A stretch of DNA of 64,000 nucleotides, from the NCBI GenBank assembly GCA_951406725.2, contig OX597823.1, positions 64,790,001-64,854,000 of the forward strand, in the 5' to 3' direction. The notes under the pieces were generated by a model. That model was given only the letters and a program-made list of their open reading frames with translations, was not told the DNA's origin and made no database searches. Of this stretch, positions 14,323-56,808 are shown piece by piece (positions within the stretch are counted from its first letter, which is position 1; each line of letters opens with the position of its first letter). The DNA comes from Octopus vulgaris (Eukaryota). The position numbers were made by a program, and so were the translations under genes.

Positions 14323-14494
14323 TACTAATTGCCAAGATACATACATACATACATATCGTACTCTAGGGTATGATATGTATATGAATTTAACACTGAAGGG
14401 ATGCACCTGATTGATTTTGAAATTTGCTTTCCCAAATTATTTATATTAATCATACAATTAGTTCTACCACTAGAACTTCTTATATATGTTAGAA

Positions 14495-15572
14495 ATGGAT
14501 CTTTCGGGTAGGATTGAGAAGATAGAGTGGAACTCATCTTGAAGGATATACCCATTCCAAACAGGAAGGAATATACACAGGACCAAATTAACCAGCTAAA
14601 AAAACTTTATAAATAAGTAAAATGGAAGGCTCACTACTACAATAACAACAATCCTAATAAGAATAATACTAACATGGAAGATATAGACTATATAAAGGGA
14701 AACTTCAAATCTTGGCAGGAACCTCCCAATAATGGAATTATACAGAACTTTGAGGAGAAAATATGGAATATTGTGCAAAATATCAAATTCAAAAATTACC
14801 CTAACAGACACAACAAACATCTCAGCAACTTAGCTAGAAAAATAGAAATATTAAAGAACCAGGATGGAGTTACAGTGCAATCTGATAAGACCAGGAATTT
14901 ATATAGACTGGATACACCACTTTATGATAAATTACTAGAAAAGGAAATAATGAAAAAATATAAGGTAGTTAATAAAAATTATCTAAATAATATTAACATA
15001 ATTTTTAAAAAATCATGGTTAAATATGGTATTGAAAATAGAATTGAACCATATATCCTGATGCATCCAAGAATAATGATTAAACACCATAAGGATAATTT
15101 TTACTCAAACCCCCAAGTAAGATTAATATGCCCAAGCAAGTCAGATACAGGTAGACTTAGCAAATTAATATTAGATAAATATTTAGGTAAATTAAATAAG
15201 TTAGTTAACCTTAAACTCCAAATTGATATAGAGATTTATTATTCATCTGTAAATGAAGTGGCTTTAAATAAGAGAAAAGTAAATATATCATTTGAAGAAG
15301 TAAAAGTAGTGTTGGCTGTGAGTAAGTCCATTATAAAATATAAAGATAAACTATGGGCAAGAAAAAACACTAGAGATTGTTTTGATATACCCATGGGTGC
15401 CCCAGATTCAGCCGAGGTTACCAATCTTGTAGGTTTATATCTCTTATCTAAACTAGAAATAGAATTTACGAATATAGAGGGTGGTCTTTATAGTGACAAC
15501 CTACTACTTATAACTCGGAAGTGTGCTAATAGGTCATTAGAATGCCTTAAGAAGAAAATATACAAGTTCTAA
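14495..15572 (+). pseudogene. Penelope-like element reverse transcriptase, frameshifted and 3'-truncated
   Basis: LKDIPIPNRKEY..KWKA N-terminus, SDKTRNLY, IKHHKDNFYSNPQVRLICPSKSDTG, IDIEIYYSSV, FDIPMGAPDSAEVTNLVGLYLL, GLYSDN (decayed YxDD); ORFs 14674-15060 and 15015-15572. Confidence 0.85.
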
Positions 15573-38225: not shown

Positions 38226-38580
38226 AAAATAAACAAGGTTTTGGTCAGTTGGCATCTGAACTACACTACCTCATGTTCCTAAGATTCATATCTACATCTT
38301 TATCTGTATAAGATGTTATTATTTGATTTGAGAACTTTATATTATTGGAAAACCTATATAAAATTAGCTGAAGATTACTCGCTATCTTAAATCTGCTGTA
38401 ATATTTACAGCTTTTAATAAAATGTTGTAGTATGAAACAATTGTACTAAATTACCGGATTCATTCTTGTTGCTTGTTTTTCATTATAATCACCCCGCATA
38501 TTTTTATGGGTAAAACCATAAAAAATTCTGGTGCATCTAAATTAAGTGCCATATTCATTTGAATCTAAATTGTTGCTGGA

Positions 38581-38583
<3 letters not shown>
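38224..38583 (+). mobile_element. Penelope-type pLTR/3'-end fragment flanked by (TA)n
   Basis: Homologous to 54330-54605 (ttataatcacccc, ggtgcatctaa.tta.gt.ccatattca); contains a hammerhead. Confidence 0.7.
38362..38451 (+). ncRNA. Type I hammerhead ribozyme
   Basis: ttag-CTGAAGA-ttact..agtat-GAAAC-aatt-GTA-ctaa; both core boxes intact, palindromic stem III acaattgt, base of stem II mismatched. Confidence 0.75.
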
Positions 38584-38639
<56 letters not shown>

Positions 38640-38886
38640 TCATCATCATCATCATCATCGTTTAACGGACGCTAAACGATGATGATGATGATGATGATAT
38701 ATATATATATACACATATATATATGAGTGTGTGTATATATATACATACAATTATAGTTATGGTATATTCTGTTAAGAACCTAGTAGAGTAGATTTTCCCC
38801 TGTAGTACTATAATGCTTAGTTCCAGGTTTGCATTTCGGCTTCTGAAATTTGTGAAGAAATAATTGAAATATATATATATATACAC

Positions 38887-49553: not shown

Positions 49554-51113
49554 AAGCCCCAGCTGTTACTTGTACACATAGAAGAGTGAGCTGGAGCAGT
49601 GTAAAATGAAACTGTTCTGCTCTGGAGCAAAATGTGCTGCCTGATCAAGGAACTGAAAGCATGACCTCATCATCATGAATCAAGCTCTAGGCCATGCACT
49701 TTTACTATTCTTACTTTGATGTATTTTTAAAAAATTATTATTTTTTTGCCTTGGGCCCTAAACTCATAATGGAATCATAGAGAACTACTATTGTTTTTAT
49801 GCTCCATTTCATAATTATTTTAAGTTTGCATTTTGATGCTGTGTCCATTAAATGTATTAACATTAGCTTTAGTCTATTATACTGATAAGCACCAAAAGAT
49901 ATATCTGAAAAGATAAATCATCAGAAGCCAAACTAGTAGAGTTTTTTTAATTTCATTTTTAGTTTTTTAATGTACCATAAAGATGAAAAATAAAAAAATC
50001 TTAAGAAACAGGAAGAACACACGGGAAACATAAACTACGTATTTTCAAAAACTTTTTTTCTTCATCTCACAAGAGTAAATTCTTTGAATAAGATGAATAT
50101 GATCTTCAAAAAATGAACTACTTTCCCTAAAAAATTAGATTATATATATATTATGTGGTTGTTGACATTTATGGTTCTTAATACGTATTCAGTTTTGAAC
50201 TTAGAACCATTATGTGAGTTTAGAAAGCACTTTATTTGGAAAGAGGATGAGAGAGAAGGTGGAGGGAGTGATGGCTATAGACGTAAAATGAAGCAATAGT
50301 TGATATAATTTGAAGCGATAAAGCTAACATTTTGTTTAAATGAAAGATCATTGGACCTACCTGAGAGTCATTTTAGTGGTTATGTCATCTGCTGGAAACA
50401 ACAGCTGAATTACCCTCACATCATATTCTCAATCTTAAAAAAAGCACAAATTAGGCAGTGCTGAGTTGGATATGTACAAAAAATGAGATTGTCGCAACTG
50501 GAATGGGGTGCTTTAGATCTTAGGTCTACTTGAATTGGGTTGGTTTTGGAGTTAAATAAAATAAACTACAACAAAAACAAGGGCAACAGTTATAAAAACA
50601 ACAATATTGGAGGGAGAGTTGACAGAACTAGGTTTTAGCATTCTATGATCTACTCCAGATAGAGGAAAACTGATGACAACCCACCCAATTATATACACGT
50701 GTACACACATACTCACACATGCACAAACACATATTCCTACATTTATGTATACATACATATATGAATATATGTACCTTTGTATGTGTGTGTATGTATATAT
50801 ATATATATATATATTCTCTTTTACTCTTTTACTCTTTTACTTGTTTCAGTCATTTGACTGCGGCCATGCTGGGGAACCGCCTTTAGTCGAGCAAATCAAC
50901 GCCGGGACTTATTCTTTGTAAGCCCAGTACTTATTCTAGCATCATTGGCAATTTTCTTTCACCGTCTTCCCTTCTTTTTTTTATATTTTTGATGAAGAGC
51001 TCTGCTCAAAAAGTGAAATCCTCTTTCTTTTCTTTCCTTTCCTGAGCATCCAATAACAGTACTTGTTCCACATCCTCGTGTTGTTTTTCTTGCTTGTTCT
51101 TGTTTGGATTGAT

Positions 51114-51145
<32 letters not shown>

Positions 51146-51214: not shown

Positions 51215-51927
51215 TGACATCTGCTCTTCTCCCCATTCTCGTGAACTCATTTCATCCATTAGGGATAGACTTGTGATGGGTGACGAAAGATGGATCTTCT
51301 ATCGAAATGTTAAACGTAACCAGTGACTTGGTAAAAGGGAAAAAGCTCAACCACAACCGGGAAGGGAACTTCATGGGAAAAAGGTTCTTCTCTCTATCTG
51401 GTAGGATTGCAAAGGAGTAATTCACTTTGAATTGTTGGACCTAATGCAACAATCAATGCTCAAGTCTACTGTCAGCAATTAGAGTGTTTGAACCAAGCTT
51501 TGAAGAAAAAAAGACCAGCTTTAGTGAATCAAAAAGGAGTGATGTTTCATCAGGACAATGCATGACCCCACACTGCAAAGATCCCATCACAGAAGATCAA
51601 AGAGCTTGGTTGGGAAAAAATTCCTCATCTACCTTATTCTCCTGACCTCGATCCTTCAGACTACCATTTGTTTCGTAGTTTACAGAATCATTTGGGGGAC
51701 ATAACTTTCGCAAGCCAGGTAGAGATTGAAACTGACATTTCAGAGTTCTTTGCTTTGAAACCAAAAGAGTTTTAGATTGTTGGGACTAAAAAACTTGTAA
51801 ATAGATGGAAGGAAGTCATAGATAATCAGGGAAAGTACATTGATGATAAAATTTCAATTAAATATAACATTTGATCACTTGTTTTCTTTATTCAAAATTC
51901 GGACAGAACTTATGGGATGACCTGATA
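51215..51927 (+). mobile_element. mariner (DD34D-type) transposase pseudogene with 3' TIR
   Basis: DRLVMGDERWIFY, LHGKKVLLSIW*DCKGVIHFELL, FHQDNA*PHTA, PYSPDLDPSDYHLFRSLQNHL; TIR cagaacttatgggatgacctga followed by TA. Confidence 0.9.
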
Positions 51928-52930: not shown

Positions 52931-53301
52931 GATAAGGAGAATGGAAATTTTTTCACATTCATAAATTTTATTTAACAGTTATTAATTACTCTACAAAACA
53001 TATGCAATCCTGAACAAGACACAGAGAATTATCCAATGAGAGAAGTTAGCAGTGCCTAACAACTGATTGTTAGCTCAAGTACTACATACAGACCATTGTG
53101 GTTAGCTGGCATCTGAAACCAATTTGAGAGAAAATATGGTACGCATCAGGATAATATCTCCCTTTAAACTCATTTTTAAAATATATATATATATATTTTA
53201 ATATATATATATATATATATTTAATATATATATATATATATGTATATTTTAATATATATATATATATATATACGAGAATGAAGCAACAAGAATGGATAGG
53301 T

Positions 53302-53392
53302 TTTTAGTACAATCGTTTCATACAAGGACAGGTTTTATTAAAAGTTGCAAAAATTACAGCATATAAACGTGTCCCGTACTCATCAGCTAAAA
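53302..53392 (-). ncRNA. Type I hammerhead ribozyme (left arm)
   Basis: ttttag-CTGATGA-gtacgggaca..tgtccttgtat-GAAAC-gatt-GTA-ctaaaa; 6-bp stem I, long stem II, intact core. Confidence 0.8.
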
Positions 53393-53889
53393 TACATGTG
53401 AGTTCTCTAGACATCCTAGTGGTTGAGGCTATACTCATGAAGTAATGTAGATAATTAAGTAACATAAACAGATTTCAAAAGTTCATTAAAGTTCTTTAAA
53501 GATGATGTACAGTCTTATCACAGAATTTTAAAAAAAGTCTTAATAGCATCACAGAGAAGGTGACCCAATCCATAGTGCACATATGAATTTCCAGAGATAT
53601 GATGAGGGATTACATACTCACAGAAGGCAAATTTATCCATTGTTAATTACAACGAGGTGGGTTTCAATTCCTGCTTATTAGCATTACAGAGAGGGTGAAT
53701 TAATCCTTTTGTATAGATGCACAATTTCCAATGGTGTAGGTGTAAATTTCAAGGAATTTCATATTCACAGGCGATAAATTTATCAATGGTTGAACACAAT
53801 GAGGTAGGTATCAATTCTTGCTATATGATTAGGTATTTGCCACATTAATCACATTACTGCTATTTACAAGAGGCTGTAGCTATAGAGAA

Positions 53890-54603
53890 ATAGCTACAGC
53901 CTCTTGTAAATAGCAGTAATGTGATTAATGTGGCAAATACCTAATCATATAGCAAGAATTGATACCTACCTCATTGTGTTCAACCATTGATAAATTTATC
54001 GCCTGTGAATATGAAATTCCTTGGAAATTTACACCTACACCATTGGAAATTGTGCATCTATACAAAGGATTAATTCACCCTCTCTGTAATGCTAATAAGC
54101 AGGAATTGAAACCCACCTCGTTGTAATTAACAATGGATAAATTTGCCTTCTGTGAGTATGTAATCCCTCATCATATCTCTGGAAATTCATATGTGCACTA
54201 TGGATTGGGTCACTTCTCTGTGATGCTATTAAGACTTTTAAAATTCTGTGATAAGACTGTACATCATCTTTAAAGAACTTAATGAACTTTTGAAATCTGT
54301 TTATGTTACTTAATTATCTACATTACTTCATGAGTATAGCTCAACCACTAGGATGTCTAGAGAACTCACATGTATTTTAGCTGATGAGTCGGACACGTTT
54401 ATATGCTGTAATTTTGCAACTTTAATAAAACCTGTCCTTGTATGAAACGATTGTACTAAACCTATCCATTCTGTTGCTTCATTCTCGCTTATAATCACCC
54501 ACATTACTGTATTGTTAAATCAGTATAGTTTTTTTTGGTGCATCTAAGTTAGGTACCATATTCAAGTAAATTCATTTAAATTAACTTGAATCTTTATTGC
54601 TTT

Positions 54604-54605
<2 letters not shown>
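53890..54605 (+). mobile_element. Penelope-type 3' end/pLTR followed by (TA)n
   Basis: Hammerhead plus a tail homologous to 38340-38583; no ORF. Confidence 0.7.
54375..54460 (+). ncRNA. Type I hammerhead ribozyme (right arm)
   Basis: ttttag-CTGATGA-gtcggaca..tgtccttgtat-GAAAC-gatt-GTA-ctaaa. Confidence 0.75.
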
Positions 54606-54644
<39 letters not shown>

Positions 54645-54727
54645 GCATTCAAAATGTGACCGCGTGTGTACCGTTGGCGATTTTTTTTTCCTCCATCTTC
54701 CCTTTTTTGGATCTTTCCTTTTCCTAT

Positions 54728-54762
54728 GTTTCTGACGAAGAGCTCCGCTCGAAACATTAAAC
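54728..54762 (+). ncRNA. Minimal type I hammerhead motif
   Basis: gttt-CTGACGAA-gagc-tcc-gctc-GAAAC-ATT-aaac; stem III ACGT appears mutated to ACAT. Confidence 0.65.
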
Positions 54763-54875
54763 CCTTATTCTTTCCTTCTTTCCTGAGCGTCCAATAATAC
54801 TATACTTGTTCCACGTCCTCGTGTTGTTGTGTTTTCCCTTTGTGTTTTCATGTTTGGATTAACTATATATATATA

Positions 54876-55641: not shown

Positions 55642-56267
55642 GACAAAAAGTGGTTAAATAAATCCAAGTGAATGCTTGTTTAAGCACTCTGTGGAAATAG
55701 AAAACCTGGCTAACTAAATTGCCTTGGTATTATTATGGCAATTTTTGTATGCTGTTATTCTTTTCTTGTGACAGGCACAGTTTATATATCTGATGCAGAA
55801 CACCAGTTAAATTTGGTGCATATATCACAGAGTATATTAGAAAAAAACATAGAGAATGAAAATGCATTATCAATAATTTATTTATCTTACACATGTTTCG
55901 ATTAGCTTGGCACAATGTAAGTGCAGCACATTGCAGTATGCATATTCAATCAATTCTTCATTTGATTAATGAAATTGCCGAAGATAGAGAGCATGTAGCT
56001 TTCAGAATGCTTCTGCTAAATTTTGTATGCATTGAGATATTGTGGAAGGGGTTTATAAACAATAAATCCCAGACTACTGTCTCCATTTTATTGTCCAGTA
56101 TTCATGTCATGAGTAAGGAGAGGTATCTTTATCAAAGGTTCTTAGTTTAATGACTGCATGTAGTTGTATGTATCTTGTCAAGATAGAATTGTAACTTAAT
56201 CTGTGATGTTAAGTGCAACTTAATTAATAGTATTATTGGACGCTCAGGAAAGAAGGAAAGAATGAGG

Positions 56268-56302
56268 GTTTAATGTTTCGAGCGGAGCTCTTCGTCAGAA
56301 TC
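56268..56302 (-). ncRNA. Minimal hammerhead motif, inverted local copy of 54728-54762
   Basis: Reverse complement gatt-CTGACGAA-gagctccgctc-GAAAC-ATT-aaac; shares the ACAT variant. Confidence 0.6.
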
Positions 56303-56530
56303 ATAGGAAAATGAAAGATCCAAAGAAGGGAAGATGGAGGGAAAAAAAAATCACCAACGGTACACACGCGGTCACATTTTGAATGCATATAAATATATAT
56401 ATATATATTAAAATATATATATATATATATATTAAAATATATATATATATATATATTAAAATGTATATATATATATTAAAATATATATATATATATTTTA
56501 AAAATGAGTTTAAAGGGAGATATTATCCTG

Positions 56531-56808
56531 TTGTGATCGCTAGTCTTAACTCATCGTAAAGTCAATACCACCATGACTGATATCCAATCTACGGTGGAGA
56601 AGGCTAGCCACTGGATTTGGTTAAAAAGAGACGATGAGTGATGGCTAGAAGTATATTGAGTTCTTCATAACCAGGTGATCTAGGAAGCGGGGCCTCATAT
56701 CAGTGAGGGGGGCCGGTGCGCATTGATGCCGTTGAGAGGTAGGCCCCGAAACGGCGCACATTCTCTTCTGATGACTGGTAGCACTTGCATGTGCAAGTTG
56801 TTTGCAAG

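Follow-up and report, generated by a model that had tools for sequence, protein, structure and literature searches.

The locus studied here raises the question of what has placed two nearly identical arms head to head, each with a hammerhead ribozyme motif, in the genome of Octopus vulgaris: a genuine insertion, and if so of what kind, or a product of sequencing and assembly. The features of the palindrome and its surroundings in the window (the whole stretch of 64,000 nucleotides of contig OX597823.1 that was analysed) are collected in Table 1. Our preferred reading, to which we give a probability of roughly 0.7, is that the palindrome is a real and recent insertion of an abundant Penelope-like element into a TA microsatellite, with an inverted copy that probably arose by fold-back. 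An earlier note on the same DNA had described a young, 5′-truncated Penelope-type insertion with an inverted copy, and that much holds; the fold-back step that it added is the likeliest route, and one that we infer. Judged by analogy with insertions of a shape that has already been published, the locus is likely to be an ordinary product of Penelope-like retrotransposition.

Table 1. The palindromic insertion, its hammerhead motifs, its target and related sequences in the window
Feature	Position	Strand	Remarks
Left arm	53273..53883	-	611 bp; inverted, 5′-truncated, tail-less copy of the element's 3′ region
Spacer	53884..53889	.	6 nt; 53888-53889 family sequence, 53884-53887 unaligned by family contigs
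Right arm	53890..54487	+	598 bp as assembled; sense, 5′-truncated copy of the element's 3′ region; distal half with likely deletion errors
One-sided tail	54488..54605	+	118 nt; family contigs have one extra C at 54497
Type I hammerhead motif, left	53302..53392	-	predicted cut after GUA at 53308
Type I hammerhead motif, right	54375..54461	+	predicted cut after 54455
Left flank	53144..53272	+	older host repeat, 5′ part; terminates in an interrupted (TA)n, the insertion target
Right flank	54606..54875	+	(TA)n and 3′ part of the same host repeat
Empty paralogue of host repeat	56227..56533	-	flanks contiguous, without the insertion
Older family relative	38391..38583	+	decayed hammerhead and tail between (TA)n tracts

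The geometry given in the earlier note, two arms about a 6-nt spacer without substitutions, is borne out by global alignment of one arm against the other, which contains 12 indel events (15 bases in total) and 0 substitutions. The right arm is the shorter in 11 of the 12 events and the left arm in 1, and 11 of the 12 are changes in the length of runs of 2–7 identical bases. As had also been described, both arms carry ttttag-CTGATGA...GAAAC-gatt-GTA-ctaaa, the left arm on the minus and the right arm on the plus strand. Within each arm there is an internal tandem duplication of ~140 nt with 69% identity (53539–53822 and, in mirror image, 53951–54168).

The insertion site can be read from the second copy of the host repeat (56227–56533), in which the sequences of both flanks join across an interrupted TA tract. 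The left flank (53144–53271) matches positions 56533–56413 of this empty paralogue at 93% and the right flank (54606–54803) matches positions 56429–56227 at 95%; positions 54674–54875 of the right flank also match 50945–51125 at 75%. Since the flanks are contiguous in the empty paralogue, the palindrome represents an insertion whose target was the TA tract of an older repeat. (TA)n is found on both sides of the insertion, with the right tract starting at 54606, and a target-site duplication is unreadable inside it. The host repeat is probably a second, older Penelope-derived family. The probable host intron of the earlier note is unconfirmed: none of the 150 ORFs scanned (the longest of the 175 in the 64-kb window that are not of low complexity) reaches the Pfam cut-off, and the six weak matches among them all lie below it. 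The decayed sequence at 51240–51900 (+), which we take to resemble the end of a mariner transposase, contains ORFs that were scanned without a Pfam match.

The tail adjoins the right arm only and is followed by (TA)n, in agreement with the earlier note; the related sequence near 38 kb, placed there at 38480–38583, is wider than claimed and extends over 38391–38625. Identity between 54401–54644 and this older relative is 73%, spanning the hammerhead, the tail and the TA run, and the relative has no inverted copy. Beside it, at 38638–38697, a short fold-back with (CAT)n-CGTTTA arms and an 8-nt spacer lies between (TA)n runs.

The stretch or part of it is present in 20 of 24 public sequencing runs listed (9 studies), the best DNA run among the 20 may be the source sample of the assembly, and contigs from four runs were aligned to the locus. 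Exact-match contigs of run X13 have word depths of 4,237, 7,100 and 11,722, compared with ~8–31 for the shallowest listed, where word depth is not a copy count. Summed contig depth peaks near the hammerhead end, and these depths suggest a family that is abundant and 5′-truncated. Contigs from three of the four runs align up to 53888 and then continue upstream of the centre in a single orientation, which implies that the element extends past the centre and that both arms are 5′-truncated. From the break of the contigs at 53888 it follows that the right arm exceeds the left by 2 nt at its 5′ end and that four of the spacer bases are non-family sequence. The joint between arm and tail is found in contigs of all four runs; one X5 contig passes from the tail into (TA)n, and a second, which derives from a diverged relative, is tail-less and ends in (TA)n a few bases from the position of the left junction. 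No centre-spanning contig is present among the records listed from the four runs (1,130 more exist beyond the listing); the X1 bin on the centre has a summed depth of 18.6 versus 8,226 and 20,542 alongside, a value that could suit a junction contig of single copy. In run X20, which has a second organism label, 0.43 of the sampled words are present; the family may also occur in a second species. A>G differences are seen in X2 and X5, two runs that were taken as RNA by guess only, no RNA run being listed among those that contain the stretch; they are uninformative on editing, since they occur in single contigs of depth <3 and one of them is also found in a DNA run.

The same contigs bear on the indels, which the earlier note had suspected to be long-read error. 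This suspicion is supported: the contigs restore missing letters, and a nanopore effect of this kind, in which bases are missed in inverted duplications, is published (PMC7229812). X2 record 17 is identical to the left arm over 53273–53528 (256 nt) and X5 record 27 is gap-free against it over 53355–53602, while X5 record 30 is identical to the right arm, without gaps, over 53888–54109 and X2 record 22 is gap-free against it over 53888–54205. Contigs on the right side insert letters at 54235, 54471 and 54497, the last of which lies in the tail, outside the palindrome. Because the family contigs agree with the left arm in the 10 distal indel events and with the right arm in the 2 proximal ones, the indels are likely to be assembly errors. 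By this comparison the differences between the arms are likely run-length errors of the assembly, and the two arms are in truth probably identical, or close to it.

Both arms carry the same minority allele at the mirrored positions 53627 and 54146, where the other letter accounts for 30,963 of 36,965 and 43,397 of 43,397 of the depth in X1 contigs, and the 5′ ends of the two arms differ by only 2 nt after 600. The shared minority allele and the proximity of the 5′ ends argue for one template for both arms. In the mechanism that we favour, a protein with GIY-YIG endonuclease and reverse transcriptase activity, supplied in cis or in trans, would nick the (TA)n tract; reverse transcription would begin at the end of the tail and stop ~720 nt in, the cause of the stop being supposed. 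About four non-family bases would then be added, and the cDNA end would snap back and copy the strand just made. Copying would finish at the tail boundary and the product would join the left flank, in a junction that is observed and by a chemistry that is conjectural. The two hammerheads would be passengers of the 3′ end of the element. Fold-back is favoured since it is the simplest account of the equal arm lengths.

Alternatively, the two arms may be separate products of two-sided target-primed reverse transcription, in which synthesis is primed from a bottom-strand nick at the tail end and from a top-strand nick at an internal site, the two cDNAs both run to the end of a single broken RNA, and their ends are then joined, a few bases being added. 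This route gives the most direct and simplest account of the one-sided tail, it accounts for the shared allele if one RNA was copied twice, and both outer junctions show the polarity of primed cDNA starts. It is further supported by the Anolis Poseidon protein, which cuts and extends both strands in vitro and whose two start sites of reverse transcription define the tail (PMC11167929). However, the two cDNAs would have to stop ≤2 nt apart at a point where family contigs run through unbroken, and end-to-end annealing predicts an overlap at the TAGCTA palindrome, which the centre does not show. We therefore regard two-sided priming as unlikely, though it is the strongest of the rival readings.

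The possibility of an artefact, raised in the earlier note, takes the form of a fold-back long read, or of a mis-join of two host-repeat paralogues, built from a simple insertion. The indel-only differences, with the second arm biased toward deletion, speak for it, the shared minority allele would be equally expected, no contig listed crosses the centre, and fold-back reads make up ~0.55–0.6% of nanopore genomic reads (PMC12338684). Yet the same missed bases occur in true inverted duplications (PMC7229812), and a fold-back read, by the definition in PMC12338684, would re-enter the same flank via the tail. The left arm instead breaks off at the tail boundary and passes into the flank on the other side, and together the flanks rebuild the empty paralogue; since this departure at the tail boundary is unlike that of a fold-back read, we rate an artefact as low in probability.

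RNA-level self-priming from an antisense template, a route suggested for rotifer Penelope elements and argued for head-to-head junction palindromes (PMC3846280), is very improbable here, as it predicts a centre fixed by the RNA end, whereas the observed one falls within uninterrupted family sequence and includes four non-family bases. The long inverted repeats and the TA flanks would also suit a MITE or a fold-back DNA transposon that targets TA and has terminal inverted repeats of 600 bp, but this is scarcely credible, and indeed largely refuted, because the family contigs are non-palindromic, lack fixed symmetric ends in common and continue both past the centre on its upstream side and into a tail at one end only, with depth skewed toward the 3′ end, and because the 38-kb relative has no inverted copy. 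A tandem retrozyme was rejected, as the units are head to head and no go-back joint is found among the contigs listed from the four runs, which can attest presence but not absence.

The remaining question is whether the two motifs of this probable fold-back insertion act as ribozymes. The type I core (CUGANGA, GAAA and UH with helices I–III) is present and predicts a ribozyme. In the left motif, the core CUGAUGA (53386–53380) and GAAA (53319–53316) are accompanied by a helix I of 6 bp and a domain II of 60 nt that an extended helix II closes. The helix III octamer is fully self-complementary when G-U pairs are allowed, so that helix III has 2 bp in a monomer and 8 bp in a dimer (−5.8 kcal/mol). 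The right motif as assembled is two bases short at the base of helix II and does not satisfy the descriptor, leaving the left copy as the sole match on both strands of the 64-kb window; none of 2000 arms simulated with matching dinucleotide composition fitted this descriptor, which was written post hoc, after the motif had been seen. The family variants listed within the motif (53314, 53326 and 53333) keep the pairing and none is in the core; as all three are transitions, they lend weak support to the pairing. The common family variant at 53314 turns the helix III octamer into a perfect palindrome, as in the 38-kb copy.

Other observations on the motifs are less favourable to cleavage at this locus. 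Rfam at gathering scores gave no match in the 64-kb window, and the 33 matches obtained around the locus at E up to 10, all below gathering, include no hammerhead and are mostly hairpin models on the centre. When folded without constraints, the motifs do not adopt the hammerhead structure at minimum energy, and their folds have no greater stability than those of shuffled sequences (z-scores −0.38 and −0.21), and pair 10.1–11.1 is G-U instead of the conserved G-C. Related metazoan hammerheads cut poorly, only as dimers or with the help of a protein (PMC4209133; PMC11167929), and both ribozymes here would likely cut only as dimers. Whichever strand is read, the ribozyme sits downstream of its own antisense copy. 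In the predicted fold of a read-through RNA, all 75 motif nucleotides on the plus strand and 75 of 79 on the minus strand pair with the opposite arm, so that the ribozymes are likely inert at the locus; the model predicts that both would be locked in a 600-bp duplex within read-through RNA. The earlier description of two divergent ribozymes thus overstated their function. The host repeat has a short hammerhead-like motif of its own at 54732–54757 (+), with CTGACGA, a 12-nt domain II, GAAAC and TTA, and decayed look-alikes of it are found at 56298 (−), 52113 (−), 41558 (+) and 50945–51125.

An inverted 5′-truncated copy together with a one-sided tail is usual for Penelope-like elements (PMC8557442; PMC3846280), and the traits of endonuclease-positive Penelope elements found here are the inverted 5′-truncated copy, the one-ended tail and a terminal type I hammerhead motif. 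The Hydra clade, as described in PMC8557442, shares the (TA)n target and likewise has a type I hammerhead close to the 3′ end, with a short helix III that begins with AC and, in many cases, the GUA cut site. Penelope-13_HM likewise has a 5′-truncated copy in inverted orientation joined to its 5′ end, bears hammerheads on both strands and targets (TA)n (PMC8557442). The (TA)n preference is seen at this locus, in the 38-kb relative and at two X5 contig ends; it is also a preference of Naiads and hence not diagnostic for the Hydra clade. Unlike Hydra-clade elements, the octopus family has no ORF linked to it, its non-coding 3′ region measures at least 720 nt and holds the internal 140-nt duplication, and its domain II is 60 nt versus ~10–25 nt in the Hydra motifs listed. 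Three short motifs of the octopus family are absent from the available part of the PMC8557442 supplement, and the 3′ end of the octopus Hydra element listed in PMC8557442 is unlike that of this family when the two are compared by eye. The left motif resembles Hydra-clade hammerheads by eye, which we take as a lead, and membership of that clade is a lead of the same kind, drawn from the likeness of the motifs. Naiads differ in having an N-terminal endonuclease and no canonical hammerhead, in contrast to the full motif here, and, by eye, three published Naiad consensus sequences from octopus look unrelated at their 3′ ends.

Head-to-head inverted truncated copies are also described for Adineta Pen2a_Av, Drosophila Penelope and Anolis Poseidon, whose units further resemble the octopus insertion in having a one-ended tail, an AT-rich target and a hammerhead upstream of the tail (PMC3846280, PMC11167929). 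Their tail, however, is 30–40 nt long and includes the ORF start (PMC3846280, PMC11167929), whereas the octopus tail of 118 nt is 3–4 times as long and contains no evident ORF; the octopus insertion also has neither an ORF nor a direct pseudo-LTR pair, and the window contains no full-length copy in which direct pseudo-LTRs in partial tandem might be seen. Compared with metazoan Penelope hammerheads, the octopus motif shares the long helix II and a self-complementary helix III suited to dimers but has G-U in place of G-C at 10.1–11.1, its domain II is much longer, and the two motifs lie ~1 kb apart (PMC4209133); dual hammerheads on opposite strands occur 100–700 bp apart in Schistosoma (PMC4209133). 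Non-LTR retrozymes are similarly non-coding, Penelope-derived and equipped with a type I hammerhead, but their units are head-to-tail tandems, in contrast to the head-to-head arrangement here (bioRxiv 10.64898/2026.07.22.740005).

Coding searches gave no link between the family and a Penelope reverse transcriptase or endonuclease in the arm frames by Pfam, word index or phmmer. No Pfam match at the cut-off was obtained in nine arm frames, and for one arm frame a word-index search among longer proteins returned no homologue. The phmmer match of that frame, to one bacterial repeat protein (22–24% identity), was taken as chance, and its faint by-eye likeness to the start of a GIY-YIG domain is unsupported. 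Two metagenome pattern scans gave 0 and 0 matches; a viral pattern scan returned 52 loci, none of which has blastn similarity to the element, and these were likewise dismissed as chance. Elsewhere in the window, at 14490–15572 (+), is a frameshifted and truncated remnant of a Penelope-type reverse transcriptase with 30–34% identity to two database proteins. Within it, positions 14617–15572 include KWK and DKT motifs that resemble the RWK and DKT of Hydra-clade reverse transcriptases, a clade whose C-terminal endonuclease lacks CCHH and has a CxCX5C linker; these positions are not joined to the palindrome family. The remnant indicates that Penelope-type elements occur in this genome. The assignment of the palindrome family as Penelope-like is likely by analogy of architecture, namely hammerhead, tail, TA target, truncation and inverted copy.

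The family was not found in the literature searched; Repbase and the supplement of PMC13282606, which lie outside that search, may hold it. We put forward tentatively, as a possibility with the odds against it, that it is an undescribed, still active and very abundant non-autonomous Penelope-like element (or one with a long 3′ UTR), whose hammerhead, with a domain II of 60 nt, escapes standard searches and whose tail, at 118 nt, is unusually long.

As a single locus, the palindrome is of small import and provides a clean example of a known insertion shape. With an empty paralogue, an allele common to both arms and a linker of 4 nt, it is a tidy case from which to judge the still unsettled formation of inverted copies by Penelope elements. 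Hammerheads with a long domain II, such as the one described here, can escape Rfam and descriptors written for short loops. If the locus is transcribed, the near-perfect 600-bp hairpin would be a strong substrate for editing or for Dicer. If the family is young, abundant and undescribed, its palindromic insertions could decide between fold-back and two-sided priming and, if it is still active, it would continue to seed the octopus genome with perfect 600-bp hairpins for RNA editing and/or small-RNA silencing.
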